Shown here: in pieces, positions 17,362 to 62,975 of the stretch
How positions within the stretch are numbered: the stretch's first letter is position 1
Layout: every line of letters begins with the position of its first letter
Assembly: GCA_902386025.1 (NCBI GenBank)
Contig: CABMHR010000001.1
Location: 99,741 to 163,740, forward strand
Source of the DNA: an uncultured archaeon
GTDB lineage: Archaea; Nanobdellota; Nanobdellia; Pacearchaeales; GW2011-AR1
Direction of reading: 5' to 3'
DNA: 64,000 nucleotides
The notes under the pieces: generated by a model
What the model was told of the DNA's origin: nothing
The model's input: only the letters and a program-made list of their open reading frames with translations
The model's database searches: none
Program-made: the position numbers and the translations under genes

Positions 17362-17420
17362 AACAGAAGGATGTTCACTTTTCATCTTATTTCTAATTTG
17401 TAATTCTTGCTACATAAATC

Positions 17421-17428
17421 TTTTTAAG
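17421..17428 (+). promoter_or_regulatory. TATA-box-like element (TTTTTAAG) about 25 nt upstream of the ATG at 17450
   Basis: Same position relative to the ATG as the other candidates. Confidence 0.3.
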
Positions 17429-17449
17429 AGCAGTTTATTTTTAGGAAAA

Positions 17450-24035: not shown

Positions 24036-24135
24036 TCAAAGAACTGTTAAATATCTTATTTAAAGATTGTTAAAGAACCCTATACTTTTTTATTCTGTTA
24101 ACTTTAATTAAAGAATATATCTCTAATCAATAATC

Positions 24136-24145
24136 TTTTTAAAAA
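24136..24145 (+). promoter_or_regulatory. TATA-box-like element (TTTTTAAAAA) about 25 nt upstream of the ATG at 24165
   Basis: Lies in a divergent intergenic region, with the same spacing as the other candidates. Confidence 0.35.
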
Positions 24146-24164
24146 GGTTAAATTTTCTTGATAA

Positions 24165-27852: not shown

Positions 27853-28539
27853 ATGAAATTTGAATCAAATTTAGATAAAGGAATTGATTATAATAATGAA
27901 TATCATCTGGCAAAATTTGGAAAATGGCTGAAACATAGGCAAATATATGAATTAAAGGGAAAGGTTGCTAAAAAAAATATTTTTTCTTATTCTTTTGACG
28001 AAAATTCAAGAGTTTTGGAAATTGGCTGTGGCATAGGGCAGATAACCGCTTGGGTTAAGAATAAACATGGATTTGATATAAATAAAGAGTTATATCCCCC
28101 CTTGAAAAAAGAGGGATTTGTGATGCATGATTCTGTTAAAGAGATTCCAAATAATTATTTTGATGAACTTGTAATGTCTATGGTATTAGAACATATTCCA
28201 GAACCGATAAATTTTATTAATTCTCTTAAGGTTAAACTAAAAGAAAACGGAAAAATAAGACTGGCATTGCCTCGTGCATATTATCATAAAATGAAAGATA
28301 TGAATAAATCAGCAGATGGGCATTATTACTGCTGGGGATTCCCAGACATCAATTATCTTCTTAATAGGTGTGGTTTTGAAGTGTTAATCAATAAAAAGTT
28401 TTTTAGGAGGGGGATTGACAGGCTTTTTTTCATTTCAAAGATAAGTTTTCCGCTTTATATGATGATGATACAATTTCTCGGATTTCTGAAGAATGATTTT
28501 GATATAATCATTATTGCTAAAAAAAATAAACAAGTTTAA
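27853..28539 (+). CDS. Class I SAM-dependent methyltransferase
   Basis: VLEIGCGIGQ (motif I), MSMVLEHIPEP. Confidence 0.7.
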   Translation: MKFESNLDKGIDYNNEYHLAKFGKWLKHRQIYELKGKVAKKNIFSYSFDENSRVLEIGCGIGQITAWVKNKHGFDINKELYPPLKKEGFVMHDSVKEIPNNYFDELVMSMVLEHIPEPINFINSLKVKLKENGKIRLALPRAYYHKMKDMNKSADGHYYCWGFPDINYLLNRCGFEVLINKKFFRRGIDRLFFISKISFPLYMMMIQFLGFLKNDFDIIIIAKKNKQV

Positions 28540-29069
28540 ACAGTTTGCTTTGTTTCAAAAGCAAATATCTTTGTAACGCTGAAGAAATTTATTTTCCTCT
28601 TCATTTCAAAGTTCTCTTTTAATATTTTTAGAATTTCATCATAAGAAGTTATATGCTCTTTTGGAACTTCTGTCTTGCCTACAAACTTCCTCATTTTTCT
28701 TGAAATAAAATTTCCTGTGGGTATAGAGACAATAATTTCAAAATTATCATTCATCTTCTTGAAATCTCCAATTATTTTTTTTATTTCGGGAGCAGGGATG
28801 TGTTCAAGGACATCAAGGCAGAATATCTTTGTTGGTTTTACTTTCCTGTAATCTTTTACAAATGTTTTTTCTGGATTTATGTCATATCCTATAATATAAA
28901 ATTTTCTTAATTTATTTTCAAGCCATCCTGCCCCGCATCCAAAATCAAGAATTACATCCTCTTTTTTAAGATGAGCAAGCTTTACTGCAGCATTTACTTT
29001 CTGCCTGAAATATGTCTTTGTCAGCAGATTCTTGCTTTCATAAGTGTTTTCAAGAAGATTATTTTCCAT
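28536..29069 (-). CDS. Class I SAM-dependent methyltransferase
   Basis: ILDFGCGAGW (motif I), CLDVLEHIP. Confidence 0.65.
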   Translation of the reverse strand: MENNLLENTYESKNLLTKTYFRQKVNAAVKLAHLKKEDVILDFGCGAGWLENKLRKFYIIGYDINPEKTFVKDYRKVKPTKIFCLDVLEHIPAPEIKKIIGDFKKMNDNFEIIVSIPTGNFISRKMRKFVGKTEVPKEHITSYDEILKILKENFEMKRKINFFSVTKIFAFETKQTV

Positions 29070-29119
29070 TATGAAAATTCTCCTGAATTTTTATTTGTGC
29101 TGAACTTCTGTTCTGTCAT
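29067..29119 (-). promoter_or_regulatory. Hairpin + TAATG-coupled mini-ORF cassette, copy 1 (upstream of methyltransferase)
   Basis: The coding strand reads ATGACAGAACAGAAGTTCAGCACAAATAAAAATTCAGGAGAATTTTCATAATG. The mini-ORF MTEQKFSTNKNSGEFS (29119..29069) ends in a TAA that shares a base with the methyltransferase ATG. Hairpin at 29074-29091 (AAAATTC/GAATTTT stem). 38 nt are identical to 45817-45854. Confidence 0.5.
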
Positions 29120-29960
29120 TTTTTAGCTTTTCCCTGAATATTTTATTTAATTCAATAACTTTAAGGTTTTTCTTTTTTCCTTCTTCATTAAGAATATAAA
29201 TTCCATTCATTTCCCTGCATTTTGGATTATATCCATGCATAGCTTTGACAGGAATTCTTCCCTGCCAGTAATTTGGCAGTATTAAAACACTAGGATTTGC
29301 AAGAAAAATATAATCTCCGTATCTTTTGTCTTTCCAGTCAATCCATTCCCCGTCCTTTGAATTAAAATTTGGCTTCTCCCCCCAGTATCTTGCGAAGGTT
29401 GAATCAATCATGCAATCTTTTGTTTCAGGAACAGATATTATTTTTTTTATGTCTATCATTCCGTGGTCTGAAAGAATTATGTCAAATTTCAGCTTTGAAA
29501 CTCTTCTGTCTATTTCTCTTATTATTTTTTTTGTCTCTTCGCTTTTTGTTCCATATTTATGGGCAATTTTGTCAATTTCTCCTATGTAAAGATATTCTAC
29601 CCCCCTTATCTTCTCAAACGGCTTTCCTATTTCCGTATCAAATTTATAAAGTTTCTTCAGAGGGATATTTCCTGTTCTGAATAATCTTTTTCTTGACAAT
29701 AATCTCTGCAGATTGATAAGAATTTCAACAGGAAGCCTTCCCATCCATTGAACTTTTTTTGTCCATTTCAAGCGGGAATTTTCTTTCTTGTGGAAAAAAG
29801 CAAGCATATCATTTCCTCCGTAAAAAAAAGTTTTCATTCCTCCCTCAAAACCCAGAGGCATTTCAAGCTCCCCCCATTGAAATTTTTTTGTCAGATGGGA
29901 CAAATAAGGGGCATATTCAAGATACTCCGGCTTGAATGAATCAATCATTATAATCTTCAT
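29091..29960 (-). CDS. Alkaline-phosphatase-superfamily enzyme (nucleotide pyrophosphatase/phosphodiesterase- or phosphotransferase-like)
   Basis: N-terminal IIMIDSFKPEYL and later IILSDHGM resemble the metal-ligand motifs of the AP/NPP superfamily. Confidence 0.5.
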   Translation of the reverse strand: MKIIMIDSFKPEYLEYAPYLSHLTKKFQWGELEMPLGFEGGMKTFFYGGNDMLAFFHKKENSRLKWTKKVQWMGRLPVEILINLQRLLSRKRLFRTGNIPLKKLYKFDTEIGKPFEKIRGVEYLYIGEIDKIAHKYGTKSEETKKIIREIDRRVSKLKFDIILSDHGMIDIKKIISVPETKDCMIDSTFARYWGEKPNFNSKDGEWIDWKDKRYGDYIFLANPSVLILPNYWQGRIPVKAMHGYNPKCREMNGIYILNEEGKKKNLKVIELNKIFREKLKNDRTEVQHK

Positions 29961-33510: not shown

Positions 33511-34965
33511 CTATTTCACAAAATCCTTCAAATGTCCGAAAACTGCCTTTATCCCCTTAAAATTGAATTTAAAATCATTCCAGCTTCTTATATTCCTTGC
33601 CCTCTGAAAAATATAGGCGGGGGTTAAAAATATTGTATAAATTCTGCTGCAAATTCCTGCAACATCTCTGGCATCAGAGTTTTCTGTTCTCAGAACAGGC
33701 TCTCTCATATCATATCTTTCATATTCTAACGGATTAAATAAAAACCATTTATTCTCTTTTGCCTCTTTCCATAAAGGAGTTCCAGGATAGGGAACAAGAA
33801 CAGTTGCCTGCAGTAAATCAGCTTTTCCGCTTTGCATTAATTTTTTCGCAAGCTGGAATGTCCTCAATGCATCTTCTTTGGTTTCCCAAGGATATCCCAC
33901 TATCATTGTCAAGTGCACAGTAAGTCCTGCTTTCTTCGCCATTCTGCATCCTTCAAATATATCTTTAATTTTTATCCCCTTGTTTAATCTGTCCAATGTT
34001 TTTTGATTTGCACTTTCAAGTCCAAATTTAAGAAGCCTGAATCCTGCTTTTTTCATTAAATCAAATTCTTCTTGATTCAATGCCCCAAATCTCATATTGC
34101 AGGAATATTTTATCTTCCTGCTGTACCCTCTTTTTATCAATCCTTCACATAAATCTTTCAGCCATTTTCCAGTCATCAGGGTTCCAGAATCATCAAAGAT
34201 TTCTTTTGCATTATATTTCTCTATTAATATTCCAATTTCATTTAAAACATTTTCAACACTTCTGACTCTAAAGCAGGGAAATAAAATTGGCCACGCGCAG
34301 AACTTGCATTTTCCCCACCAGCAGTCTCTTCCAGACATAATATAAAAAAAAGGCTTTCCCTGCAAATTATATTCTTTTTCATAAAGCCCCCATTTTGTCA
34401 GCTCTCTGTCAATAAACGGAAGTTCGTCCAGATTATGCTTGAGGATAATTTTTCCTGAATTGATTATTCTGTCATTTTTTCTGTAATATATTCCCTTGGG
34501 GCAGTTTTTGCTTTTTTTCTTAATCCAGCTGCATAATTCCAGAAGACTAAAATCAAAATCCCCCCCGCACAAGACAAAATCTACTTTTGAATTTTTCATG
34601 CTTTCTTCTGGGAATGAAGTTGTGTGATCTCCCAATAATGCTATTTTCATTCTTGGGAATTTTTCTTTTAATGCATTAATAATCTTCCAATGTTGTTTTA
34701 TCACAGGAGTTTTTGTCTCAAAGGCAAATAAATCTGGATTCTCTTTTTCTATTCTTGATAGAAATTCCTTCCAAGAAAGTTTTTCTGCTATTGCATCAAG
34801 CCAGCATACTTCATAATTATTTTTTTTCAAAAGAGTTGCAGCACTTCCAAGTATAACGGGAAACATATAGCTGGGATTTGAAAACCACTGAAACTGCCTG
34901 TTCTGGCTTAGCAGTGCAACTCCTTTTTTTGAGAATGTTGGGGGATATCCTATAATTATTTTCAT
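33511..34965 (-). CDS. B12-binding-domain radical SAM enzyme with atypical CX4CX2C cluster motif
   Basis: The cobalamin-domain-like N-terminus is followed by SGRDCWWGKCKFCAW (Cys215/220/223; 34297-34323). Confidence 0.7.
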   Translation of the reverse strand: MKIIIGYPPTFSKKGVALLSQNRQFQWFSNPSYMFPVILGSAATLLKKNNYEVCWLDAIAEKLSWKEFLSRIEKENPDLFAFETKTPVIKQHWKIINALKEKFPRMKIALLGDHTTSFPEESMKNSKVDFVLCGGDFDFSLLELCSWIKKKSKNCPKGIYYRKNDRIINSGKIILKHNLDELPFIDRELTKWGLYEKEYNLQGKPFFYIMSGRDCWWGKCKFCAWPILFPCFRVRSVENVLNEIGILIEKYNAKEIFDDSGTLMTGKWLKDLCEGLIKRGYSRKIKYSCNMRFGALNQEEFDLMKKAGFRLLKFGLESANQKTLDRLNKGIKIKDIFEGCRMAKKAGLTVHLTMIVGYPWETKEDALRTFQLAKKLMQSGKADLLQATVLVPYPGTPLWKEAKENKWFLFNPLEYERYDMREPVLRTENSDARDVAGICSRIYTIFLTPAYIFQRARNIRSWNDFKFNFKGIKAVFGHLKDFVK

Positions 34966-35849: not shown

Positions 35850-36860
35850 TTAAACAGCATTAAACAACTCTGTTCTGAATAAAACAAATCCTATTATAAT
35901 TATAAATATTTGAAACAAGTTTATCAGCAGAACAACATCTGTTTCATAGACTTTTTTGCTTGGTTTTATTTTCTTTAATACATTAATTGCAAGATGTTCC
36001 AGCCCGTATATTTTTTCATATGGCTGTTCCAAGCTCCCATCTGGATTAACTCTTGCAAAGCTCTGCTTTTTCAGTTTTCCTCTTGACTTGAGGATTGTTT
36101 CAAGGATATATGGAATAAAAAAGAAGACAGCAATCCCTTCTATATTTCCTAAAATTGCTATTGTTCCGATTAATGCTCCGACGCAGTAAGTAAGAATATT
36201 CCCCGGGAATACTTTGGCAGGATTTTTGTTGTATATGTAAAACGGAACAAGCGAAGCAACCATGCATAATGTGATAACACTCAGCCATTTTTGCCCCATT
36301 AGGAATGTTATTCCTGCAAGAGAAGAAAGAATTATTATTCCTTGGCTGGTTTCAAGCCCGTTATATCCTGCAAGAAAATTAAATGTTGCAGACGCTCCGA
36401 TTATCCCAATAGGAATAATAATTAACGGAAAAATCCATCCAAAGTTTATTCCCATTATTGTTGATTGTCCTGCGTTTATCACTATCAGAGGGATTGAAGC
36501 AAACAAAAGAAGAATTAATCTTGACTTTATTGTTAATCCGCCTTTTCTCCATCCAAGCAAATCATCCAGCATTCCTATAAATGCAATTACTAAAATGACG
36601 CTTAAAGATGCGAAAATTTCTATTAAATTATCCTTTGATTTAAAATAAAATGTTTTTATTGCAATATAAGATAATGTTCCTAATATAAATGCAAGAAACA
36701 TACTTATTCCTCCAGAACCGGCAACATTTTTTGGGTGCTCTGGCTTGTTCATATCTTCCCAAACAAGCCCTATATCTTTTGCTTTCCTAATCCAAAATGG
36801 AATTAAGAATAATCCTGTAAAGAAGCTTAAAAGAAGAGGGATTAACAGAATCAAATTCAT
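35850..36860 (-). CDS. MraY/WecA-family (GT4 polyprenyl-phosphate) HexNAc-1-phosphate transferase, AglH-like
   Basis: About 10 TM segments; GMLDDLLGW motif; FPGNILTY. Directly downstream of aglB. Confidence 0.75.
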   Translation of the reverse strand: MNLILLIPLLLSFFTGLFLIPFWIRKAKDIGLVWEDMNKPEHPKNVAGSGGISMFLAFILGTLSYIAIKTFYFKSKDNLIEIFASLSVILVIAFIGMLDDLLGWRKGGLTIKSRLILLLFASIPLIVINAGQSTIMGINFGWIFPLIIIPIGIIGASATFNFLAGYNGLETSQGIIILSSLAGITFLMGQKWLSVITLCMVASLVPFYIYNKNPAKVFPGNILTYCVGALIGTIAILGNIEGIAVFFFIPYILETILKSRGKLKKQSFARVNPDGSLEQPYEKIYGLEHLAINVLKKIKPSKKVYETDVVLLINLFQIFIIIIGFVLFRTELFNAV

Positions 36861-36861
36861 C

Positions 36862-39633
36862 TTAACTTACCCCACTTATTTCTTCAGGATAATCTGTACT
36901 CAAATAGGTGGAATTCAGTTTTATATCTGAAGGGTAGCTTACATTCCATATTTTAATAGGGCCCTGCAATCCGCCTGCTGGTGCATAGTATACAAATTCC
37001 CCCAAATTCAATCCCTGTTTCTTTAAATCGTCAATAATAAGGCTGTCTTCCGAATGAACCAGCTTGAAATAATTAGAATTTTCATTGAACAAATATAATC
37101 TTGTCAATTCGGAATTAATCACTCTTTTACTTAAATAAAATCCTGCTCCTGTTTTAGAGATGCTTATAGTTCCGTCTGTTTGCGATTTAATTAATGGAAA
37201 GAGAAATATTCCAGCATCCATTCCATTTTTAAAATCATATAATTGCCCCCCCATATATACATATCTAATCTCTGTTTCATATCTTTGTCCATTGTATCCA
37301 AATACTATTGTTGGTTGATTTGGTTTTCCTTCTTTAGTGAAGCTTATAATTGCCCCTGCAACACCTGTCTTTTGAGAAGGTAGTAAGGTTTCTTGTCCAT
37401 CTTTTGTGATTAAAAAATCCTCATCAAGAGCAGCCCCTATAGGGTAAACATAGGTTGTTTGATTATTTGTTTCATAAGTTTGTGCTTCATCTAAGAATAT
37501 AGTCGGAATCCAAGAATATCTGTCATAATTTGCATCAGAGCCAATGCTTGAAAAAGCTCCATATTTTCCAATGTCGGTTGAATCAATCAGAAGATTAGTT
37601 GCATTATGTGCATAAAGGAAATCCAAGGCTTCTCTTTCATCTGTTCCTGTCAGAACATTTCTTCCCATAAAATAATCCCAATATCCAATAGCATTCCCCC
37701 CGTCTAATATTGTTGCCCTCTCACCAAGCGATTGAACCCAGTATCCGTAATCCCACCAATGTGCAAATACAGCAGTTAATGAAGTATTGTCTCTAACCCA
37801 ATCCATTGCTTTCTGCCATTGTTGGGTATAACTTGTTGGAGCATAATTTTCTGCAAGGTTTTTATCACTGACATAATAAGTCCAAAGGGTAAATATTGAA
37901 GCTATTAAAACAACAAGAACAAAAATTCCCAAAAATAATTTCTTTGTATCTTCTTTTTCCCGAAGATATCTATGGCTGCTTTTTATGATTAAAAATGCAA
38001 CTGCAATAGGACTTACAGCTCCAAGCACCATTATTAATCTTACTGCTCCTCTCGCACTTATAATTCCCAATGTAAATATTATAAAATAAAGAATATAAGA
38101 GAAATCAAAGTTCTTGAATACTGAAAATTCTCCTGCTTTGTGTCTTTTATAAACAACATATGCAAAACCTGCTAGGAATAATAATGTTGCTCCGAAATAA
38201 AGCAAAATGCTGATAAAACTCTGCCCGTTGAACATGCTGCTTGAAGAATATTTGCTGAATATCATTCCGAAAAGAAGAATGACATATCCTGAAGTCAAGA
38301 TTATTTTTTCTTTTTTATTCAGCTCTTTTATTATAAAAGAGAAAATCAATACTGAACCAATAAACATAAGCCAAAAATACAGAGGGATATTTGCAACTGT
38401 TGGGCCAAACTCTCCAACCCATTCGCTTGTGAAATATGGCTGTTTATTCTCTGCAACAGTTACACTAAACCTCCCTTGGTTAATAGGATTTACAGTGTTT
38501 GATATAATATCTTCTCCAACATGAACAATAGAAGAACCTCCTGAAGTGATTAATGAGAAAATTATTCCTATGACTATTGTTATTATAAGGGCAATAATTG
38601 GTTCTGGTAATTTAATAAACTTCTTTGCTTTGGTTTCCAGATTAAATATTTTTTTCTTGAAAATTAAAAAGTCAATCAAAAGAATAAAAAATACAATTAA
38701 TACGAGCTCTGTTGTGCTTGAATTAAGAATATTGCTCAAGCTGAATCTGTCTGAAAAAGGCATTGCGCTTATCAAAAACCCAGCAATCCAGATGCAGTAA
38801 ATATAAAACTTTTTTTCATCTATTTTCCCAAGAATGAATGAAAATAAAACTGCTCCTGCAATTCCCACAAGAACAAAATCAATAAATCCAGAGATTAAAC
38901 CCAGCATTGCTGTAGAAATTCCAGCTAAAACGCTGAAGATTACTGCATTCTTTATCTTTTCTGATTTGAATGCTTTGATAAAAAAGTAAAGTCCTATAAA
39001 TATAAAGAAGAAAGCAGCTGATTCTTTTTCAGGTATTCCTGCGATTGTTCTTGTTAATAAAGAAGGTATGAGGACAAAGAAAGCAGTTGCAATTAAAGCG
39101 ATTATATTTGCTGTCTTCCCGTCTTTTTTATAAAATATTTCTCTAGCAAAAAGGAAAAATGCAATTCCCGTTAAAACAGCCATAACTACTGGAAATATTA
39201 TTGCAGCATAAGTTACTGTTACATTCTTGTCAAATATTCCCAAGAACTTGCTGAACCATGCAATCAAATAAGGGAGAAGAATAGTTTCTCCTGAAGGAGA
39301 AGCAGGAGCACAGGAACTTCCAGAACATATATTCGCAAGAGGGACATATCTCATAACATCCAATACAAACAATTTTCCGTGTTCTGCTATATATTGAGCC
39401 CACCTAAGAAATAAAAAGGGGTCTAAATCAGGCCCTAATGTCCAAGTTCCTGTAGTTACATCTTTTAATTTTGGAATATTTCTTGTTCTGATAAAAACAC
39501 TTATTGATATTATAACAGCAAGAATTGCATAAACAATTAAATTAATCTTTTTTTTGAGAAAACTAATAGCCTTCTGCTTTCTGGCTTCAATCTCTTTTTC
39601 AGACACAAACTCTTTTGTTTCTCCTTCTACCAT
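36862..39633 (-). CDS. aglB: Archaeal oligosaccharyltransferase (STT3 homologue)
   Basis: 923 aa. Polytopic N-terminal domain, the catalytic WWDYG motif (AHWWDYGYWVQ), and a DK-type motif candidate (DSTDIGKYGA). Confidence 0.9.
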   Translation of the reverse strand: MVEGETKEFVSEKEIEARKQKAISFLKKKINLIVYAILAVIISISVFIRTRNIPKLKDVTTGTWTLGPDLDPFLFLRWAQYIAEHGKLFVLDVMRYVPLANICSGSSCAPASPSGETILLPYLIAWFSKFLGIFDKNVTVTYAAIIFPVVMAVLTGIAFFLFAREIFYKKDGKTANIIALIATAFFVLIPSLLTRTIAGIPEKESAAFFFIFIGLYFFIKAFKSEKIKNAVIFSVLAGISTAMLGLISGFIDFVLVGIAGAVLFSFILGKIDEKKFYIYCIWIAGFLISAMPFSDRFSLSNILNSSTTELVLIVFFILLIDFLIFKKKIFNLETKAKKFIKLPEPIIALIITIVIGIIFSLITSGGSSIVHVGEDIISNTVNPINQGRFSVTVAENKQPYFTSEWVGEFGPTVANIPLYFWLMFIGSVLIFSFIIKELNKKEKIILTSGYVILLFGMIFSKYSSSSMFNGQSFISILLYFGATLLFLAGFAYVVYKRHKAGEFSVFKNFDFSYILYFIIFTLGIISARGAVRLIMVLGAVSPIAVAFLIIKSSHRYLREKEDTKKLFLGIFVLVVLIASIFTLWTYYVSDKNLAENYAPTSYTQQWQKAMDWVRDNTSLTAVFAHWWDYGYWVQSLGERATILDGGNAIGYWDYFMGRNVLTGTDEREALDFLYAHNATNLLIDSTDIGKYGAFSSIGSDANYDRYSWIPTIFLDEAQTYETNNQTTYVYPIGAALDEDFLITKDGQETLLPSQKTGVAGAIISFTKEGKPNQPTIVFGYNGQRYETEIRYVYMGGQLYDFKNGMDAGIFLFPLIKSQTDGTISISKTGAGFYLSKRVINSELTRLYLFNENSNYFKLVHSEDSLIIDDLKKQGLNLGEFVYYAPAGGLQGPIKIWNVSYPSDIKLNSTYLSTDYPEEISGVS

Positions 39634-44432: not shown

Positions 44433-44681
44433 TTACATTCCTGCTTCTAAAAGCATTTCATTTAACATTTTATAATAGTCGTCTCTGGGGGAATATCTTC
44501 CTCTTTCTACTTCACTAACTTCTCCGCCGCAATAGACATATTCTTTATCAACTATTTCCCAGTTGTCTCTACAAATTGTTTTTGTATGGCTTCCCCATTC
44601 TGAAGTAATTAGTTCTCTTCCTGCTTCTTTTGCTTCCTTTGTTTTAATATCAATTATTCTTTTTATAAGAATGTTTGTCAT
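44433..44681 (-). CDS. Orphan small ORF F (82 aa) inserted between rpl30 and rpl15
   Basis: MTNILIKRIIDIKTKEAKEAGRELITSEWG...; its ATG shares a base with the rpl30 stop (TAATG) and its stop lies 1 nt before the rpl15 ATG. No family recognised. Confidence 0.6.
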   Translation of the reverse strand: MTNILIKRIIDIKTKEAKEAGRELITSEWGSHTKTICRDNWEIVDKEYVYCGGEVSEVERGRYSPRDDYYKMLNEMLLEAGM

Positions 44682-45037
44682 TATAGCATCCTCTCAACTA
44701 ACTTATTTATTTCTTTTCCGTGATTGCCCAAAACTCCTTTCTTAACTCCGAAATGCAGTTTGCTGTCAATCCCTTTTCTTGGGGGATGAAGCCTGAAAAC
44801 TTTTGTCTTTTCCTTGAATTTCTTTCCTCTTGCTTCAATTAATTTTTTATAAGTTTCAGCATCTAATTCTCCGAATGCAACGAAATCTTTTATCTCTTTT
44901 ATCATCCCCATTTCAACAGGAGTTGGCTTATCAAGAACAATGCAGGAATATTTTCTTGTAAGTCCGAGCCTTCTGAATGTTTCTCTGACTTCTTCTCTGA
45001 TTTTTACATCTCCTGAAATTCTTATTATAACTATCAT
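44681..45037 (-). CDS. rpl30: 50S ribosomal protein uL30
   Basis: IVIIRISGDVKIREEVRETFRRLGLTRKYSCIVL. Confidence 0.9.
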   Translation of the reverse strand: MIVIIRISGDVKIREEVRETFRRLGLTRKYSCIVLDKPTPVEMGMIKEIKDFVAFGELDAETYKKLIEARGKKFKEKTKVFRLHPPRKGIDSKLHFGVKKGVLGNHGKEINKLVERML

Positions 45038-45819
45038 TCTTCTTTCTCCTTGTTTGTTTTCTTTAAAGCATCAATTGTCGCTCTTATAAGATTGACAGTT
45101 GTTCCCTTTGTTCCGAATGTCTTGCTGTAAACATCTTTTATTCCTGCAAGTTTCAGAACTTTTTTCATCTCCCCCGCAACTACTAATCCTGTTCCTTGAG
45201 GTGCAGGTATTAATGTTACTCTTACACTTCCTGATTTTCCTGTTATCTTGAATGGAATGCTGTGTTCTTCATTGCAAGCGCAGTCAAAACTTGCGCACGC
45301 TCTTCTTATTTTTATAATTGCTAATTTTGCCTGCCTTATTGATTTGTCTCTTGCAGGAAGAGTTTCTTTTGCATGCCCCATTCCTATTCCAACATGCCCG
45401 TTTCCGTCTCCAACAACTGCAAGCGTTGAGAAAGTAGGAACATTTCCTTCTTTTGTTTTTCTCTGCGTCTGCTTCCACGCTCTTCTTTTTCCTCCCCCGA
45501 ATTTTCCTTTTGACTGCCCTATGAAAAGCAGGTCAGACTGAACATTTATTAGGGAATCAACAATCTGCTCTTCCAAGATTTTCCTTTTTCCTTCGAGAAT
45601 TTCATCTATGTTTTTTATTTTCTTTTCCTTTACTTCTTTTCCAAGTTTTGTTTTTGGAACCCAAGAGGCAAGTTTTGATGCTGCTTCTCTTTCTGCTTCC
45701 TTTTCTCTTTCTGTTCTCTTGTCAACAGCAACCAAATCTTTTCCGATTTCCTTTTCAAGAAGTTCCTGGCTGATTTCTTCAGCTGTTCTCTTGTCAACTT
45801 TTTTTGCTTTCTCTGTCAT
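45034..45819 (-). CDS. rps5: 30S ribosomal protein uS5 (with K/E-rich N-terminal extension)
   Basis: VVGDGNGHVGIGMGHAKE, TLIPAPQGTGLV. Confidence 0.9.
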   Translation of the reverse strand: MTEKAKKVDKRTAEEISQELLEKEIGKDLVAVDKRTEREKEAEREAASKLASWVPKTKLGKEVKEKKIKNIDEILEGKRKILEEQIVDSLINVQSDLLFIGQSKGKFGGGKRRAWKQTQRKTKEGNVPTFSTLAVVGDGNGHVGIGMGHAKETLPARDKSIRQAKLAIIKIRRACASFDCACNEEHSIPFKITGKSGSVRVTLIPAPQGTGLVVAGEMKKVLKLAGIKDVYSKTFGTKGTTVNLIRATIDALKKTNKEKEE

Positions 45820-45872
45820 TATGAAAATTCTCCTGAATTTTTATTTGTGCTGAAATTTCCTATTTCTGTCAT
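45817..45872 (-). promoter_or_regulatory. Hairpin + TAATG-coupled mini-ORF cassette, copy 2 (fills the rpl18-rps5 gap)
   Basis: Mini-ORF MTEIGNFSTNKNSGEFS (45872..45819). Its ATG lies 1 nt after the rpl18 stop and its TAA overlaps the rps5 ATG. Hairpin at 45824-45841. 45817-45854 is identical to 29067-29104. Confidence 0.5.
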
Positions 45873-45873
45873 T

Positions 45874-46368
45874 TTATTTTTTCTCTATGCTTGATTTAAT
45901 TTCCTTGAATGTTTTTGAAAAGTCCTTCTTCATATTTTTCCCGCTTATTCTGTCTTCATCTGGGAAATTTTCTTCTGGACATTTTATCTTGACACCAGCG
46001 TCGTTGATTCCCTTGAGGAATGCAAATGCCTTGTTCTTGCTGATAGCTCTTATCATTCCAATATCTGCTATTGGGGCTTTTAGCTTCTTGCCGATAATTT
46101 CTTTTCCGAGCAGGAATCCTGTAAGGTATGATGCAGGGACTGATTTCAGGCTTCCGCTGAATTCATCAGGCCAACCGTATTTTTTCAGATTCTTTGAAGT
46201 TATTCCAATTTCAATCTTGTCCTGCGCTTCTCTGCTAGACACATATTGGGCTATTATGTATTTGTTGGTTTTTCTGAATACAATTCTTGGAGATTCGCCT
46301 TTAAGAAGCTTGAATCTTCTGGCATAATCTGTCTTGCTTTCTCTTCGTCTTCGTTTGTCTATTTTCAT
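45874..46368 (-). CDS. rpl18: 50S ribosomal protein uL18
   Basis: RRRRESKTDYARRFKLLKG...PRIVFRKTNKYIIAQ. Confidence 0.9.
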   Translation of the reverse strand: MKIDKRRRRESKTDYARRFKLLKGESPRIVFRKTNKYIIAQYVSSREAQDKIEIGITSKNLKKYGWPDEFSGSLKSVPASYLTGFLLGKEIIGKKLKAPIADIGMIRAISKNKAFAFLKGINDAGVKIKCPEENFPDEDRISGKNMKKDFSKTFKEIKSSIEKK

Positions 46369-47778: not shown

Positions 47779-48159
47779 TTAGTAGAAATAAGCAATTAAG
47801 CTTCCTCCAATTCCTTCCTCAACTGCTTCCTCGTGAGTCATCAAGCCCTTGTTTGTTGAGATTATCATCTCCCCTATTCCTCTTGCAGGAAGATATCTTC
47901 TGATATATTTTTCAATTTCATCTTTTCCCACTGTGAATCTTGGCTTTATTGCCTTGCATTCTGCAACGTTTCCAAGAGTTATTTCAACGCTCTTTTCTTT
48001 TGGATTAATCTTATACTTCTTTATTGCTTCTTTTTGCTTCATTATTTTTAGAATTTCAATTAGCAAATTTGAGATTTTCTTTATCTCAATTGTTTCTTTT
48101 CCTGCTTTTCTGGCGTTTTTCATCATATTTAATGCGTCAGCAACTGTGTCCTGGCTCAT
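47779..48159 (-). CDS. rps8: 30S ribosomal protein uS8
   Basis: MSQDTVADALNMMKNARKAGK... Confidence 0.9.
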   Translation of the reverse strand: MSQDTVADALNMMKNARKAGKETIEIKKISNLLIEILKIMKQKEAIKKYKINPKEKSVEITLGNVAECKAIKPRFTVGKDEIEKYIRRYLPARGIGEMIISTNKGLMTHEEAVEEGIGGSLIAYFY

Positions 48160-48329
48160 TTTAATCTATAACCTCCAAGATTATCTAAATGAATTTCTTC
48201 ATTGCATTTAAATGGGTTTATCTTTTCTTTTGCCCACATCGGAATATAATCTGTTGCTATGTCTGTTAGGATTTTGAATTCCTTCTCGCTAATCTTTCTT
48301 TCAATTCTTGTTAAATGTTGTTCTTTCAT
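48156..48329 (-). CDS. Orphan small ORF E (57 aa, not in ORF track) inserted between rps14 and rps8
   Basis: Hand translation: MKEQHLTRIERKISEKEFKILTDIATDYIPMWAKEKINPFKCNEEIHLDNLGGYRLK. Its ATG lies 1 nt after the rps14 stop and its TGA forms an ATGA overlap with the rps8 start. It exactly fills an otherwise unexplained 171-nt gap. Confidence 0.55.
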   Translation of the reverse strand: MKEQHLTRIERKISEKEFKILTDIATDYIPMWAKEKINPFKCNEEIHLDNLGGYRLK

Positions 48330-49104: not shown

Positions 49105-49755
49105 TTATTCTACTATCATAAGCTGATTTATTAAAATATTAATTTCTTTTTCTCCTGATTTTATTGTTGCAATCTTGTCCTCAATATTTAGCTTTGTAAT
49201 TTCTCCTTTCTTTCCGATATGTTTTCCTGAAAATACAACTGCCTTTGCTTTATCTTTCAAAGGTATGCATTTTTCTATCTTTCCTTCTTTAAGGTTGATT
49301 AATACAGAATCATTTGTGTTGCATTTGATGTCCGAAATAAAATTTCTCCCGTCGCTTAAATTTAACTGCGTCTTTTTCCCTTTCAAAACTTTCTTGTTTA
49401 TTATTTTTGCAATTTTTCTTCCCGCTTCATTGTCTTTTATTTCATTAAGGAAGAATTTTCCGTTGTCAGACAATTCAACTCTGTAGCTTTTCTTCAAGGG
49501 AAGAACATTAAGCGTGTCAAAGAACAGGACATTGCTTTTTTCATCTTTTACTGCTTTTTCATTTACCAAAATTTGTCTTGCGTGGATTATTTTTTTTGCT
49601 TCCCTTCTGTTCTGCGCCAGTTTCATTATTTCTCTTAATACAATAAGCATTGGGATTCCTTCTTCCATTCCGAAGTTGGGCTTTACTATGTATGCTGTTC
49701 CTTTTCTTTCAACAGGCCATTTGTTCGGTGCACTTTCACGTTTTAGATGGCTCAT
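49105..49755 (-). CDS. rps4e: 30S ribosomal protein eS4
   Basis: MSHLKRESAPNKWPVERKGTAYIVKP. Confidence 0.9.
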   Translation of the reverse strand: MSHLKRESAPNKWPVERKGTAYIVKPNFGMEEGIPMLIVLREIMKLAQNRREAKKIIHARQILVNEKAVKDEKSNVLFFDTLNVLPLKKSYRVELSDNGKFFLNEIKDNEAGRKIAKIINKKVLKGKKTQLNLSDGRNFISDIKCNTNDSVLINLKEGKIEKCIPLKDKAKAVVFSGKHIGKKGEITKLNIEDKIATIKSGEKEINILINQLMIVE

Positions 49756-49961
49756 AGTGCGTAAACCTCCCTTATTTTTTCACTGAAAAATTTCTGGTAT
49801 CCTCTAAGGTAATCTGTGTTGTCAGAAGTGATAAGAACAATTGCTAAATTGTCTAATTGTATTTTCTTTTCTTCTGAATTTTTAGCCAGTTCAATTCTTG
49901 ACATACATTCTGCACACTGGAAAATTCTTTTTCTTCCTTCTGCTAATTCTTTATTTTTCAT
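49752..49961 (-). CDS. Orphan small ORF D (69 aa) inserted between rpl24 and rps4e
   Basis: MKNKELAEGRKRIFQCAECMSRIELAKNSEEKK.... ATGA start/stop overlaps at both ends (with the rpl24 stop and the rps4e start). Confidence 0.6.
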   Translation of the reverse strand: MKNKELAEGRKRIFQCAECMSRIELAKNSEEKKIQLDNLAIVLITSDNTDYLRGYQKFFSEKIREVYAL

Positions 49962-51065: not shown

Positions 51066-51260
51066 TCATTCTCCTTCCTCCGTAATTTTCTCTCCGTAAA
51101 TTCTCATTGGTATCCTTTTTCCATTCTCAACTGAATAATCCCCGTCATTTTCTTCTGCTGTAAAATTTTCAATTGGGATGAATTCGTAATTTCTTGTTGG
51201 TTTGTTAAATTTTCTTCTTTCTCTTTCAAGTTCTTTTTGTGTCATTTCAATTCTTTCCAT
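51066..51260 (-). CDS. Orphan small ORF B (64 aa) inserted between rps17 and rpl14
   Basis: MERIEMTQKELERERRKFNKPTRNYEFIPIENFTAEENDGDYSVENGKRIPMRIYGEKITEEGE. Its ATG shares a base with the rps17 stop (TAATG). A 46-nt spacer containing GGAG precedes rpl14. Confidence 0.6.
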   Translation of the reverse strand: MERIEMTQKELERERRKFNKPTRNYEFIPIENFTAEENDGDYSVENGKRIPMRIYGEKITEEGE

Positions 51261-51616: not shown

Positions 51617-51686
51617 TTTGTTTTTGTTTATGTGTGTTTTCTTTTCTCGTTTCTACCATTGTAGGTTCTTTTTTTAAAGAACCCCA

Positions 51687-51980
51687 TTAGTCAATCGACT
51701 CTGGGTTAAATCCAAGCTTCACAAGGACTTCTTTTATCTTTTTCCTGTGATCTCCCTGAAGTTCTACCTCGCTGTCTCTGTAAGTTCCGCCGCACGCAAG
51801 CTCGTTTTTAAGGGCTTTTGCGACTTCTTTCACATCGACTCCACTTAGTCCGCTGACAATAGTGACATATTTGCCGTATCTTTTCTTCTCGGCAGTCACT
51901 TTGATATTCTGCGAACCCTTAGCGATTTTTTCACACACGCAGGCTTGTTTTGGAAGCCCGCACTTTGGACATATTTCCAT
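51687..51980 (-). CDS. Translation initiation factor aSUI1 (aIF1)
   Basis: N-terminal Zn-knuckle CPKCGLPKQACVC, then KYVTIVSGL...ELACGGTYRDSEVELQGDHRKKI (SUI1 fold signature). Confidence 0.85.
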   Translation of the reverse strand: MEICPKCGLPKQACVCEKIAKGSQNIKVTAEKKRYGKYVTIVSGLSGVDVKEVAKALKNELACGGTYRDSEVELQGDHRKKIKEVLVKLGFNPESID

Positions 51981-52039
51981 TATGAAATTTGTTCTGCAAA
52001 TTTTATTTGTGTTGAACGAATTTTAATGAGTTCTGTCAT
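51978..52039 (-). promoter_or_regulatory. Hairpin + TAATG-coupled mini-ORF cassette, copy 3 (diverged; fills the rpl29-aSUI1 gap)
   Basis: Mini-ORF MTELIKIRSTQIKFAEQIS (52039..51980). Its ATG lies 2 nt after the rpl29 stop and its TAA overlaps the aSUI1 ATG. The hairpin at 51985-52003 (AAATTTG/CAAATTT) keeps pairing through two compensatory changes relative to copies 1 and 2. Confidence 0.5.
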
Positions 52040-61648: not shown

Positions 61649-61728
61649 GCCTCCGTGGCACAATGGTACTGCACTCGCCTTGAGAGCGAGGCCTTTACGG
61701 CTTCCAGGTTCGATTCCTGGCGGGGGCG
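61649..61728 (+). tRNA. tRNA-Ser (anticodon UGA), long variable arm, no encoded CCA
   Basis: Hand-folded cloverleaf. Acceptor GCCTCCG/CGGGGGC (one G-U pair). Anticodon stem CTCGC/GCGAG with loop CTTGAGA. Variable arm GCC-TTTAC-GGC. T-arm CCAGG-TTCGATT-CCTGG. Discriminator G. Confidence 0.85.
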
Positions 61729-61796: not shown

Positions 61797-62975
61797 ATGG
61801 ATATACATAACTACAAGAGAAGATTAGAGAGAACATTAGAGAATATTAAAAATTCTAAAGATATTTCGGATAATAATAAAAAAACTATTTTGAAGTTTCA
61901 TGATTCTTGTTTTGCCGATGGGATTAGTGTCTGCAAAATTGAAAGATATTTGTATGACTTAGCTCGATTTTCTCAAATGCTCAATAAAGATTTTGAAAAC
62001 GTGGAAAAAGATGATTTGTTAAAAGTTGCGGGAGAGATAGAGAAGAAAGAGTGGAGTCCAAACAGCAAACAGACTTTTAAGGTTATGATGAAAAAATTCT
62101 ATAAGTGGTTGGAAGGAAATGGAGAAAGCTATCCAGAAAAAATAAAATGGTTAAAAACAAATCTCAAGAATAATCATAAAAAACTACCTGATGAATTAAT
62201 TAATGAAGAGGAAATTGAGAAACTTATTAGATTTTCTAATAATATAAGGGATAGGACATTTATATCTTTGTTATATGAGACAGGTTGCAGAATCGGGGAA
62301 TTGGGTTCTCTTACAATTAAAGATATTTCTTTTGATGAATTTGGTGCTAAACTTATTGTATCAGGAAAAACAGGAGCAAGAATTGTCAGGATAGTTAATT
62401 CTGCACCATATATTCAAGAATGGATTAATAATCACCCCTTCAATAAAAATCAAAACTCATATATTTGGATTAAGAAAAATGGAGAATCAATAAGCTATGC
62501 TCGTCTTTCTTCTATAATCAAGAAAACTGCTAAGAGAGCAGGAATAACAAAAAGGATTCATCCGCATTTATTTAGACACAGCAGAGCTTCTTATCTTGCT
62601 AATTACATAACGGAGTCGCAGATGAAAAATTATCTGGGGTGGACACAATCCAGCAAAATGGCAGGAATTTATGTTCATCTTAATGATACTGATAATGCAA
62701 TATTAAGAATGAACGGACTAAAGAAAGATGAAGAAAAACAAGAGCAAAAACTAAAACCAAAAACATGTATTAGATGTAAAACAATTAATGAGACTACAAA
62801 TAGATTTTGTAAACTATGCGGTTTTATTTTAGACGCAGATACAAGCAAAGAGATATTACAAAAAGAATCTGAAAGAAATCAGATGGATGATATACTTAAT
62901 GAGGTTATGAAAGATAAGGACGTTTTAGAGTTATTGAGCCAGAAGATTAAAGAGAAAAAGTTGATTAATAAATAA
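61797..62975 (+). mobile_element. Tyrosine recombinase/integrase (phage-integrase family) with C-terminal zinc-ribbon
   Basis: ETGCRIGEL (Arg I region), HPHLFRHSRASYLA (H-x-x-R), AGIYVHL (catalytic Tyr region), CIRCKTINETTNRFCKLCG. Starts 69 nt downstream of tRNA-Ser. Confidence 0.85.

Follow-up and report, generated by a model that had tools for sequence, protein, structure and literature searches.

What is the short spacer that separates the ribosomal protein genes rpl18 and rps5, and why does it hold a tiny reading frame ending on the rps5 start codon? We addressed this question in the window, i.e. the whole stretch of 64,000 nucleotides of archaeal DNA that was analyzed. An initial annotation had described a 54-nt spacer, in which a 17-codon mini-ORF starts 1 nt after the L18 TAA and shares one base of its own TAA with the S5 ATG. 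The spacer was indeed found at 45820-45873, and translation gave the same mini-ORF. The features of the locus are the following:

45874..46368, minus strand: rpl18 (L18; Pfam Ribosomal_L5e), the gene upstream of copy 1
45820-45873, minus strand: the L18/S5 gap, 54 nt
45817..45872, minus strand: copy 1 of the element, 56 nt from first ATG to terminal ATG, at the L18/S5 junction
45819..45872, minus strand: mini-ORF of copy 1, 17 codons plus TAA, reading MTEIGNFSTNKNSGEFS followed by the stop
45817..45821, minus strand: TAATG overlap between the mini-ORF stop and the S5 start
45034..45819, minus strand: rps5 (S5; Pfam Ribosomal_S5 and S5_C), whose start codon is targeted by copy 1

S5 orthologues start with M[TAV]EK at the position of the terminal ATG. 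A covariance model (CM R1), scanned over the whole window without filters, detected exactly three copies of the element, all on the minus strand (45817-45872, 29067-29119 and 51978-52039). They score 77 bits (E=6.6e-15), 74.7 bits and 59.6 bits respectively, and the next match reaches only 22.7 bits. The two other copies and their neighbouring genes are:

29091-29960, minus strand: Phosphodiest-family gene (Pfam), upstream of copy 2, its stop codon now inside copy 2
29067..29119, minus strand: copy 2, 53 nt, flanked by the Phosphodiest-family gene and a Methyltransf_23 gene
28536..29069, minus strand: methyltransferase gene (Pfam Methyltransf_23), downstream of copy 2
51978..52039, minus strand: copy 3, 62 nt, diverged, at the L29/SUI1 junction
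51687..51980, minus strand: SUI1/aIF1 gene (Pfam), downstream of copy 3

Both had been proposed beforehand, the latter as a diverged copy, and both proposals hold. Copies 1 and 2 have 33 nt exactly in common and match at 40/41 nt, and 0/100 shuffles gave any match; copy 3 is homologous though diverged, as indicated by its score with the family model (59.6 bits, E=5e-11). Copy 1 is also identical over 56/56 nt to a copy located at a different junction in a different genome. The gene upstream of copy 2 reads into the element and terminates at the TAA of ACAAATAAAA (29093-29091), a read-in that the initial annotation had missed.

The element belongs to a family of about 70 copies distributed in at least 17 genomes of Nanoarchaeota (Pace-/Woesearchaeota-type), all the genomes sampled being MAGs. 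The covariance model, whose use beyond the window had been suggested, detected 65 non-redundant copies in 490 kb, to which others in L061, L062 and L064 are added. Up to 18 are present in the sampled part of the copy-richest MAG. Because copies share descent, these counts do not represent independent events. A search of 596 Gb of genomes with an anchored pattern, which itself imposed the anchors ATGACAGAA, CACAAATA and CATAATG, returned 52 loci, 49 of them in Nanoarchaeota, Pacearchaeota or Woesearchaeota MAGs. Outside this group no genuine copy was detected, whether in other taxa, in viral contigs, in phages, in plasmids or in Rfam: IMG/VR gave 0 matches, INPHARED phages none and PLSDB chance partial matches only. 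A viral or plasmid vector was dropped, as these three databases gave no genuine match. Element lengths range from 50 to 62 nt, with rare variants of 74-125 nt. Two subfamilies exist, one or the other being favoured in individual genomes, and both tandem copies and cargo-bearing variants occur. The genes located downstream are heterogeneous (S5, SUI1, methyltransferase, S14, L22, SecY, permeases and many unknowns), and the majority of copies precede non-r-protein genes. The multi-copy ORFs near elements are FtsX/MacB permeases. The literature searched by topical and core-sequence queries contains no description of the element; these searches did not cover the data of a MITE census in which a MITE-rich Woesearchaeota genome is reported.

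Every copy extends from one ATG to another, the latter being the start of a real gene, and all three window copies have precise empty sites in related genomes. The junction of copy 1 is empty in L001, L002, L004 and L032 (TAATG or abutting) and in L061 (10-nt gap), and that of copy 3 in L001, L002, L011, L013, L015, L027 and L033 (0-5 nt). For copy 2, the empty allele is found in L063 and the filled one in L064; the reconstructed empty allele of copy 2 reads AAAAATG joined to GAAAATAATC. In the orthologue-pair comparison, only pairs with a downstream identity of at least 0.72 were used. In a filled site, ATG is followed by ACAGAA..H1..CAGCACAAATA..H2(SD)..CATAATG and the gene, versus ATG and the gene in an empty one (H1 and H2 are the hairpins described below); the alleles thus differ by the element body and one ATG. 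The precise empty sites therefore identify the unit as an insertion at a start codon, with ATG on both sides. As ATG flanks both sides in each empty/filled pair, a 3-bp duplication and a target plus an element end cannot be distinguished. The unit had been described as repeated and possibly as a tiny mobile intergenic module; it is indeed repeated, but the empty sites make it a start-codon insertion and not a feature of the spacer.

The orientation of the element is always that of the gene, and its end always falls on the gene's ATG. Copies always follow an ATG, in which only the trinucleotide is constant, the preceding base being variable. After the terminal ATG, the tetranucleotide ACAG is enriched (11/65 copies versus 15/570 background genes, p=1.3e-5). 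It had been asked whether every copy ends in TAATG at a gene start. This is nearly so: the stop/start junction is TAATG in 64/65 copies, and in 62/65 an ORF of 50 codons or more begins at the terminal ATG; the remaining junction is TGATG, a single TAA-to-TGA change that leaves the overlap intact. Of the 65 copies, 39 have their first ATG at a gene stop; in 13 it is spaced from a TATA box as in leaderless genes, and in 5 it follows another copy. The first ATG takes the former place of the gene's own ATG, abutting or overlapping the upstream stop in operons and lying about 28 nt downstream of the TATA box in leaderless genes. In copy 1, the ATG of the mini-ORF holds the ancestral S5 start position, 1 nt past the L18 stop. 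Across different genomes, at least 10 junctions of one r-protein operon are occupied, and an orthologous gene marked in one genome is unmarked in its neighbours. The suggestion of a mobile module is supported by precise empty sites, by this patchy occupancy, by the tandems and by the number of copies in one clade.

The element is built in the following order: ATGACA, hairpin H1, the conserved linker CAGCACAAATA, hairpin H2 with GGAG in its loop, and CATA-ATG. In the three window copies these parts are located as follows:

45852..45866, minus strand: H1 of copy 1, GAAAT-AGGAA-ATTTC, present in the MFE fold
45842..45851, minus strand: linker of copy 1, AGCACAAATA, single-stranded, with invariant or nearly invariant columns in alignment A1
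45824..45841, minus strand: H2 of copy 1, AAAATTC-AGGA-GAATTTT, present in the MFE fold
45830-45834, minus strand: SD-like AGGAG of copy 1, at the H2 loop/3' arm
29102-29113, minus strand: H1 of copy 2, GAAC-AGAA-GTTC
29074-29091, minus strand: H2 of copy 2
52014-52033, minus strand: H1 of copy 3, GAAC-12 nt loop-GTTC
51985-52003, minus strand: H2 of copy 3, AAATTTG-CAGAA-CAAATTT, without SD

The fold is thus made of two separate hairpins and not of a single one, H1 lying 6 nt from the first base of the element and H2 7 nt from the last. The initial annotation had overlooked H1 and the linker. Its description of H2 in copy 1, a hairpin that displays an AGGAG and ends 4 nt (CATA) before the ATG, is correct, with the qualifications that the hairpin is thermodynamically weak and that it does not sequester the SD. 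The loop of copy 3 lacks AGGAG, which had gone unnoticed.

Results concerning covariation support the pairing. H1 varies as GAAAT/ATTTC, GAAC/GTTC, GAAAAT/ATTTTC and others, and H2 is 96.3% paired, with compensatory changes in 5/7 pairs. For both hairpins together, 92.5% of cells are paired versus 75.4% in shuffles, double-sided changes concern 112 cells versus 48 in shuffles, and the covariation score is 0.35 versus at most 0.042 when partners are slid. The fold is thermodynamically weak (-4.8 kcal/mol, z=-0.85); a stable fold being unsupported, covariation is the sole support for the hairpins. No bias towards the RNA strand is apparent in the wobble pairs (6 G.U versus 8 A.C), which leaves undecided whether the hairpins act at the RNA or at another level. 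Conservation of the linker is partly imposed by the search pattern, yet it is kept in most copies found by the covariance model alone. The initial annotation would have been refuted by an absence of other copies and of any conservation of frame or pairing; this clearly did not occur, further copies being present and the frame (see below) and both hairpins being conserved.

The same conservation can be read as that of a host cis-regulatory leader, in which a trans-acting protein or RNA would bind the CAGCACAAAUA linker between the hairpins and co-regulate the translation of the marked genes; copies would have spread by duplication, mobility being incidental or long past. Consistent with this reading, the linker and the overall sequence keep about 82% identity across genomes in which S5 proteins share only 75-85%, the window and L064 have 96% identity in the element at the copy 2 site for 75-79% in the flanks, and the r-protein operon is enriched in copies. 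It accounts poorly, however, for the heterogeneity of the downstream genes, for orthologues that carry a copy in one genome while those of its neighbours lack it, and for the tandem copies and cargo-bearing variants; moreover, no Rfam family matches and the fold is weak, without G.U excess. We consider a regulatory leader unlikely, without setting it aside, and retain insertion at start codons as the preferred reading.

Across the inserted family, a reading frame is maintained. Stop codons amount to 1 in the mini-ORF frame versus 101 and 44 in the two others, and the length is 3n+2, i.e. in frame, in 60/65 copies. When left and right halves were swapped between copies, 25.6 +/- 3.6 were in frame versus 59/64 observed, a value reached in 0/10000 permutations; among distinct length combinations, 18/22 are in frame (p=4e-6). 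The cargo-bearing variants of 74 and 107 nt also remain in frame. In most copies the mini-ORF has 15-19 codons, with an overall range of 15 to 35. An SD-like core is present in 58/65 copies; GGAG or GAGG occurs in 47/65 and is invariably placed 9-12 nt before the ATG. Frameshifts affect five or six copies and an SD is missing from 7, yet all persist, so that neither feature is indispensable alone. The A that follows the element's ATG preserves ATGA overlaps with upstream genes. In PMC12548453, which cites Huber 2019 and 2023, the TAATG (-1) overlap is given as a standard coupling motif, and archaeal termination-reinitiation is stated to require overlaps or very short gaps. The coupling or re-initiation function first put forward for the spacer is supported by the upkeep of the frame and of TAATG and by the position of the SD, translation and reinitiation themselves being inferred. 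Comparative evidence thus favours both the mobile and the coupling interpretations, which are mutually compatible.

A frame of this kind could be the scar of a small gene cassette, the mini-ORF being left by in-frame deletion of the 54-119 aa ORFs found at junctions. Relatives do carry such ORFs between L18 and S5 (L003 orf97, L059 orf94, L060 orf88 and L005 orf54), and L003 orf97 likewise begins with ATGACAGAA. The element nevertheless has no similarity to the junction ORFs of relatives, forms a family of definite two-hairpin structure scattered ahead of unrelated genes, and is read in different frames over the same conserved nucleotides by the two subfamilies; a cassette scar is very improbable. 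Still less credit can be given to an internal archaeal promoter, in which the A/T-rich ACAAATAAAAA would act as the TATA box of a leaderless gene starting about 27 nt further downstream. An A/T-rich stretch does lie at -27 to -19 from the terminal ATG, and the real promoters of the window carry TTTAAA at -30 to -27. However, a PWM built from the window's own promoters scores copies 1 and 2 at -2.5 and -2.3 respectively, whereas real first genes average 5.8 and operon-internal genes 0.6, and on these scores a promoter was dropped. In addition, subfamily 2 carries ATACAAAAC at this position, a genuine TATA box, suitably spaced for the first ATG, already precedes 13 copies, and the maintained frame and TAATG junction would be left unexplained.

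A functional micropeptide gene of 15-19 aa would fit an ORF open in about 92% of copies, but the peptide is not what is conserved. The linker is translated as FSTNKN or as SAQIQN, depending on the subfamily, lengths range from 15 to 35 codons, loop-encoded residues vary freely, and the frame and TAATG junction are kept across 22 length classes with no conserved peptide. As the subfamilies read the conserved nucleotides in different frames, a functional peptide was dropped as hardly tenable. Finally, an RNA-level element on either strand (BHB-type intron, antisense C/D-box sRNA, terminator or r-protein autoregulatory operator) is suggested only by weak antisense Rfam C/D-box matches (13.5-14.4 bits) and by a hairpin followed by a T-rich run on the antisense strand, and is barely conceivable, since these matches (E 2.4-4.7) are far under the gathering scores of 40-47 bits, the fold has no bulge-helix-bulge, a spliced or antisense RNA would gain nothing from a maintained frame and SD, and non-r-protein genes follow most copies. 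With Rfam 15, tRNA alone was detected in the whole window at the gathering threshold, and a permissive scan of the locus gave only matches with E of at least 2.3; a known Rfam RNA family was dropped as an identity for the element, with nothing at the gathering threshold and permissive matches at chance level.

If the element is mobile, the enzyme that moves it was not recognized. Within the genome fragments available, neither a transposase nor any other mobilising enzyme was detected: about 560 kb of them contained no TnpA-like ORF (tblastn/blastp with an approximate IS200 TnpA query, best E=0.42), and there was no transposase among 39 window proteins scanned with Pfam. The only recombinase of the window (61797-62975) is Xer-like and below all model cut-offs, with 139.8 bits for the XerA model (cut-off 220) and 47.8 bits for the integron integrase model (cut-off 265); the latter score ruled out an integron integrase.

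In our judgement, the spacer is probably a copy of a clade-specific, non-autonomous and translationally transparent insertion family that settles on start codons, translation and reinitiation being inferred. According to this proposal, ribosomes that once started the gene would now start the 15-19 codon mini-ORF, through the old coupling or at the leaderless 5' end. Their passage would melt the two weak AU-rich hairpins and end at the TAA of TAATG; they would then restart on the restored ATG of the gene, aided by the GGAG that the H2 loop exposes 9-12 nt before it. Through such a relay, an insertion otherwise expected to disrupt tight coupling within an operon would become nearly neutral, and this near-neutrality would allow the element to be maintained and to spread. 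As for the hairpins and the conserved linker, they most likely serve an unidentified mobilising enzyme as recognition features. A more ambitious reading is possible, which we hold only tentatively: an active and undescribed class of prokaryotic mobile elements, with an operon-internal or leaderless start codon as target, a mini-ORF, SD and TAATG serving as a "bicistronic" adaptor that makes insertion into essential coupled operons harmless, and a mobiliser as yet unrecognised in DPANN archaea. The element could then be a single instance of a broader process by which small ORFs and other mini-inserts, with duplicated junctions, are also placed at gene boundaries in these genomes.

If true, this would represent a new survival strategy of selfish DNA in extremely compact genomes, in which the element lands on start codons rather than avoiding genes and carries the signals for its own neutrality. 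It would explain odd spacers and spurious tiny ORFs in the otherwise gapless operons of DPANN archaea, with consequences for start-site and small-ORF annotation in thousands of MAGs. The family would also provide a natural archaeal equivalent, tested by evolution, of a synthetic bicistronic-design part in dozens of sequence variants, as well as a comparative data set on termination-reinitiation under selection in uncultured archaea that mix leaderless and SD-led initiation. It raises the question of which enzyme recognizes a start codon and two small hairpins.

Several known systems share part of these properties. Like MITEs, Correia, ERIC, BOX and Rickettsia palindromic elements (RPEs; PMC10969869), the element is small (50-62 nt), multi-copy, of non-coding size, lineage-specific, polymorphic in presence or absence and of a kind that affects neighbour expression. 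A classical MITE was nevertheless dropped: terminal inverted repeats are lacking (the first 12 nt and the reverse-complemented last 12 nt agree at 4-7 positions, compared with 4-8 in shuffles), and, unlike MITEs and small bacterial repeats, every copy lies at a start codon in the orientation of the gene. RPEs survive through translation compatibility by in-frame insertion (PMC10969869), whereas compatibility is achieved here by a separate coupled mini-ORF. The short ORFs of integrons (attI1 ORF-11/17/18 and those of attC; PMC8876359) also accompany stem-loop recombination-site DNA between genes; there, a small non-functional ORF sustains downstream expression by termination-reinitiation, and start and frame matter while amino-acid changes matter little. 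An integron attC was dropped, as the R'' (RYYYAAC) and R' (GTTRRRY) core sites are found in 0/64 copies and two hairpins replace the long imperfect one; there is no integron integrase, and the element appears to move alone and not within an ORF-attC cassette.

The closest structural match is with PATE-like or IS200/IS605-type "terminal-only" elements. PATEs of Haloquadratum walsbyi are terminal-only IS200/IS605-type derivatives too short for a transposase, 52-bp versions being known (PMC3119063). As in PATEs, terminal inverted repeats are absent and a palindrome is present near each end; the end palindromes are sometimes nearly identical (GAAAAC-AGGAA-GTTTTC and CAAAAC-AGGA-GTTTTG in L042), and copies are multiple. 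PATEs insert 3' of a specific target of 4-6 nt without duplicating it, a behaviour that the insertion of the element beside an ATG may or may not share, only this trinucleotide being constant. PATEs tend to target one another (PMC3119063), and tandem copies occur here. Unlike in PATEs, no IS200/IS605 TnpA or TnpB has been linked to the element, the distances from hairpin to end are very short (3 and 7 nt) and the apparent target is a start codon; a maintained ORF, SD and stop/start overlap are unreported for PATEs (PMC3119063), whose hosts are haloarchaea and not DPANN archaea.

On the translational side, the TAATG (-1) motif and the preserved upstream ATGA (-4) overlaps are those of ordinary coupling (PMC12548453), except that the upstream partner is a dispensable ORF of 15-19 codons carried by the insert instead of a real gene. 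By analogy, the element resembles a natural "bicistronic design" (BCD) cassette. It has the sequence features of a bicistronic coupler, i.e. a leader ORF, an SD near its 3' end and an overlapping stop, this being a functional likeness and not a phylogenetic family. Synthetic BCDs likewise have a short leader cistron with an embedded late SD and a stop overlapping the start of the gene, and in them the translating ribosome unfolds local structure and then reinitiates (PMC8601185); the 16-19 codons and the TAATG junction of the element match them closely. Unlike in a BCD, the first cistron borrows the initiation signal of the target gene, including leaderless 5' ends, and whereas BCDs are engineered bacterial parts, the element is a natural, repeated and apparently mobile archaeal sequence.

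The minus strand of the window (GC content 32.6%) carries a typical archaeal ribosomal-protein operon, L3 to SecY, whose genes mostly abut or overlap by 1-4 nt. An S5 protein search placed the source among DPANN archaea, with named matches at 80% identity in Candidatus Nanoarchaeia and at 76% in Candidatus Pacearchaeota. The initial annotation had read the L18|S5 spacer, one of the few in this operon, as a repeated unit with a mini-ORF and a hairpin, and this reading was borne out. The spacer sequence is exactly as given there; the mini-ORF (45872-45819) translates as MTEIGNFSTNKNSGEFS up to a TAA which overlaps the S5 ATG; and the 3' end of the hairpin AAAATTC-AGGA-GAATTTT lies 4 nt before this ATG. 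The gap and the copies of the element are located as follows.

45820-45873, minus strand: gap between L18 and S5
45817-45872, minus strand: copy 1, at L18|S5
29067-29119, minus strand: copy 2
51978-52039, minus strand: copy 3, at L29|SUI1

Copy 2 is identical to copy 1 at 40 of 41 positions, 33 nt of them in an exact run (matches in 0 of 100 shuffles), and copy 3 is a diverged homologue, as had been proposed. A covariance model of the family, run without filters, found only these three copies in the window (77, 74.7 and 59.6 bits); the next match reached 22.7 bits (E=0.01). This weak match (34431-34475, minus strand) lies within a radical-SAM gene, starts with ATGACAGAA..TTCAG and lacks the second hairpin; it is either chance or a relic.

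The distribution of the family was analyzed in 596 Gb of species-representative genomes, with a pattern anchored on ATGACAGAA, CACAAATA and CATAATG. Among 52 matching stretches, 49 belong to MAGs of Nanoarchaeota, Pacearchaeota or Woesearchaeota; the remaining three (a Bacillus, a Bacteroidaceae genome, an uncultured bacterium) lack every other family feature. The covariance model, trained on 51 unique copies and run against 490 kb of fetched sequence, identified 65 non-redundant copies, and additional ones were present in L061, L062 and L064 (handles L001 to L064 designate loci or contigs fetched from other genomes). One MAG contains 18 copies in the sampled loci alone. Individual genomes are biased towards one subfamily (16 of 18, 8 of 8 and 7 of 7 copies). 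IMG/VR and the INPHARED phages gave no match, the PLSDB plasmids only chance partial ones, and Rfam nothing credible.

Comparison of orthologous junctions with and without the element (filled and empty sites) shows that the element is an insertion at a start codon. At the copy 1 site, L18 and S5 abut or overlap (TAATG) in L001, L002, L004 and L032, and are separated by 10 nt in L061. The copy 3 junction reads AATAAACATGGAAATATGT in L002 and AATAAACATG[ACAGAAC...CATAATG]GAAATATGT in the window, and has a 0-5 nt gap in six further genomes. For copy 2, the metagenome contig L063 provides the empty allele, ...GATGAAAAATGGAAAATAATC, in which the upstream gene ends with an 11-nt overlap (ATGGAAAATAA), matching prediction; L064 carries the filled allele, where the element is 96% identical to that of the window and the flanks 75-79%. 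Similar pairs were obtained for the L5|S14 junction (L032 against the window) and for the SecY promoter (L062 against the window). In all pairs, the filled allele exceeds the empty one by the element body and one ATG. Identity of the element between genomes is about 82%, where S5 proteins share 75-85%, and copy 1 is identical (56/56) to a copy located at a different junction in another genome (L032).

All copies have the orientation of the downstream gene, and in 62 of 65 an ORF of 50 codons or more starts at the terminal ATG. As to the first ATG, 39 copies have it at, or overlapping, the stop of the upstream gene, 13 have it about 28 nt downstream of a TTTAAA box, and in 5 it immediately follows another copy; in such tandems the terminal ATG of one copy doubles as the first ATG of the next. 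By a rough estimate, such a genome should have similar numbers of intergenic ATGs and start codons, so the choice of targets goes beyond "ATG plus purifying selection". Genes starting with ATGACAG, which matches the 5' end of the element itself, are over-represented among the targets (11/65 vs 15/570 background genes, p=1.3e-5), a preference which would account for the tandem copies too. At least ten different junctions of the ribosomal-protein operon are occupied across genomes, each genome having its own subset. A role as leader of a host regulon remains possible as a secondary, exapted function, but it fits poorly with heterogeneous targets and patchy occupancy, and with the tandem copies and cargo-bearing variants.

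Every copy of the inserted element presents the same order: ATG-ACA, a first hairpin (H1), the linker (C)AGCACAAATA, a second hairpin (H2), CATA, ATG. H1 is GAA..loop..TTC with a stem of 3-7 bp; H2 has a stem of 5-8 bp and a purine-rich loop. In the MAFFT alignment 92.5% of stem cells are paired, vs 75.4% in column shuffles (value reached by 0 of 500), two-sided changes concern 112 cells vs 48, and the covariation score drops from 0.35 to 0.042 or less once partners are slid by one column. The two subfamilies differ in the H2 stem: AAAATTC/GAATTTT versus CAAAAC/GTTTTG, CAAAAT/ATTTTG or CAAAACC/GGTTTTG. The minimum free energy fold of copy 1 consists of H1 and H2 alone, and is weak (-4.8 kcal/mol, z=-0.85); since, in addition, G.U pairs (6) show no excess over A.C pairs (8), whether the hairpins act at the level of RNA or single-stranded DNA is unresolved. 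Neither terminal inverted repeats nor attC core sites were found in the copies. Some copies have variant 5' ends (ATGAGCAAAC..TTTGCC, ATGAAAAAT..); in others the stretch from H1 to the linker is enlarged by a further hairpin or by 21-70 nt of cargo. Long variants, with extra sequence or a hairpin there, are:

L015:5867-5973: variant of 107 nt
L027:1957-2030: variant of 74 nt
L027, about 3381-3505, minus strand: variant of about 125 nt

The extra hairpin, CAACC-TAAA-GGTTG, lies between H1 and the linker; this position may be the cargo site of a longer, possibly autonomous, relative.

The open frame of the mini-ORF is conserved and appears to be under selection. One stop was counted in the mini-ORF frame and 101 and 44 in the other two. 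Length is 3n+2 in 60 of 65 copies, the left and right halves changing by non-multiples of three which compensate each other: 59 of 64 copies are in frame, vs 25.6 +/- 3.6 when halves are randomly re-paired (0/10000 permutations), as are 18 of 22 distinct length combinations (p=4e-6). The 74-nt and 107-nt variants keep the frame. The peptide is not conserved: the linker is read ..FSTNKN.. in one subfamily and ..SAQIQN.. in the other, and these different frames contradict a functional micropeptide. The terminus is TAATG in 64 of 65 copies, the sole exception, TGATG, retaining both stop and start. Of 65 copies, 58 have an SD-like core within or at the H2 loop and 47 have GGAG or GAGG, always 9-12 nt from the ATG, within the range (judged by eye) of ordinary operon genes of the window. 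Five or six copies are frameshifted (L064 among them) and seven lack an SD (copy 3 among them), hence neither feature is indispensable on its own.

Window-wide, TTTAAA-type boxes that start 27-30 nt before the ATG precede 18 of 35 first genes vs 2 of 38 operon-internal genes, so primary transcripts are probably mostly leaderless; operon-internal genes use GGAG-type SDs.

Upstream of 5771, 5888, 8987, 24035, 36860-39633 and 43930: examples of TTTAAA-type boxes

The distance from TTTAAA to the first ATG of the element equals the spacing in these leaderless genes. An internal promoter within the element is rejected by a promoter PWM test and by copies already downstream of genuine promoters. A spliced intron, an antisense C/D-box sRNA and a ribosomal-protein operator are each contradicted by specific results.

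Anatomy, insertion position and sequence constraints come from comparison; translation and reinitiation are inferred. The mini-ORF would inherit the initiation context of the target gene, whether a leaderless 5' end or coupling with the gene upstream. Ribosomes translating it would melt both weak hairpins, terminate at the TAA of TAATG and reinitiate on the restored ATG, aided by the SD displayed in the H2 loop. As archaeal termination-reinitiation coupling requires overlaps or very short distances (PMC12548453, citing Huber et al. 2019 and 2023), S5 would lose its coupling to L18 if a 50-nt insert were left untranslated, and would keep it with an insert that is translated and overlaps at both ends. 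H1, H2 and the linker would most plausibly be the features recognised by a mobilising enzyme.

The ribosomal-protein operon of this clade also contains many small unannotated ORFs (54-119 aa, no Pfam family), set between ribosomal-protein genes with overlapping stop and start codons.

48156-48329, minus strand: small ORF in the window
51066-51260, minus strand: small ORF in the window
49752-49961, minus strand: small ORF in the window
44433-44681, minus strand: small ORF in the window
L003:1360-1653: small ORF in a relative
L059:904-1188: small ORF in a relative
L060:95-361: small ORF in a relative
L005:4749-4913: small ORF in a relative
L059:1986-2345: small ORF in a relative

A C-terminal motif, IEKM..YG(E/D)S..EY, is common to the L18|S5 ORFs of L003, L059 and L060, which thus form one small-protein family. 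L003 and L004 (compared at 1340-1680 and 180-220) encode identical S5 proteins, and only L003 has the 97-aa ORF, on either side of which about 20 nt of the L18/S5 junction is repeated (GAAAAGAAATAATGACAGAA); it looks like a gene-sized insertion at the same S5 start codon. Inserts of unrelated sequence and similar logic are found at L061:3540-3650, L061:1735-1845 and L005:1644-1699, each with a mini-ORF that begins at the former ATG and whose stop overlaps the new one, an internal hairpin and an SD. The duplicated junctions that flank them measure 8-9 nt (AACAATGA) or 16 nt (GGAGGAAAAGAAATGA), a variation that points away from a fixed-TSD transposase and towards another mechanism. That the elements themselves are scars of small ORF cassettes is contradicted by specific results. 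Elsewhere in the operon, two relatives have an S-adenosylhomocysteine hydrolase gene (422 aa) inserted between L32e and L19e (L001:7839-9107; L002:7839-9107), and the 70-nt SUI1|S17 spacer of the window contains a perfect palindrome, GGTTCTTTAAAAAAAGAACC (about 51664-51683, minus strand), whose centre resembles the TATA box of the organism and which could be an internal promoter or a terminator. Outside the operon, the following genes were noted.

61649-61728, plus strand: tRNA gene, with a tyrosine recombinase directly after
61797-62975, plus strand: tyrosine recombinase, 392 aa (XerA model 139.8 bits, cut-off 220)
17450-18322, plus strand: family-2 glycosyltransferase gene
24165-25076, plus strand: family-2 glycosyltransferase gene

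The recombinase scored well below cut-offs on integron integrase models; with the tRNA it may mark one boundary of an integrated element that continues beyond the end of the window. Promoter regions and 5' ends of the glycosyltransferase genes (17417-17644 and 24132-24362) are 72-87% identical over about 230 nt, a local duplication in a large glycosylation / B12-radical-SAM gene cluster (about 1-36 kb).

No description of the element was found in the literature searched (including by core sequence) or in Rfam; MITE-census sequences were not compared. In that census one Woesearchaeota genome reaches 105 MITEs per Mb (PMC11602168); the method used requires TIRs, which the element lacks. Nor did the literature searched describe start-codon-specific insertion, a built-in coupling ORF and an SD combined in one element. 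Structurally closest are PATEs, 52-bp "terminal-only" derivatives of IS200/IS605-type transposons, with no inverted repeats, near-terminal palindromes and target-specific insertion (PMC3119063). Membership of this family is unproven, since no IS200/IS605-type transposase linked to the element was found in about 560 kb of fetched DNA with an approximate TnpA probe. In its leader cistron, embedded second RBS and stop/start overlap, the element matches the synthetic bicistronic-design element (PMC8601185), and it is also like the small ORFs of integron attI / attC sites, which restore translation through the stem-loops of recombination sites (PMC8876359). Small mobile repeats are well known, as is mini-ORF coupling from integrons and synthetic biology; a categorically new targeting mechanism is a real possibility.
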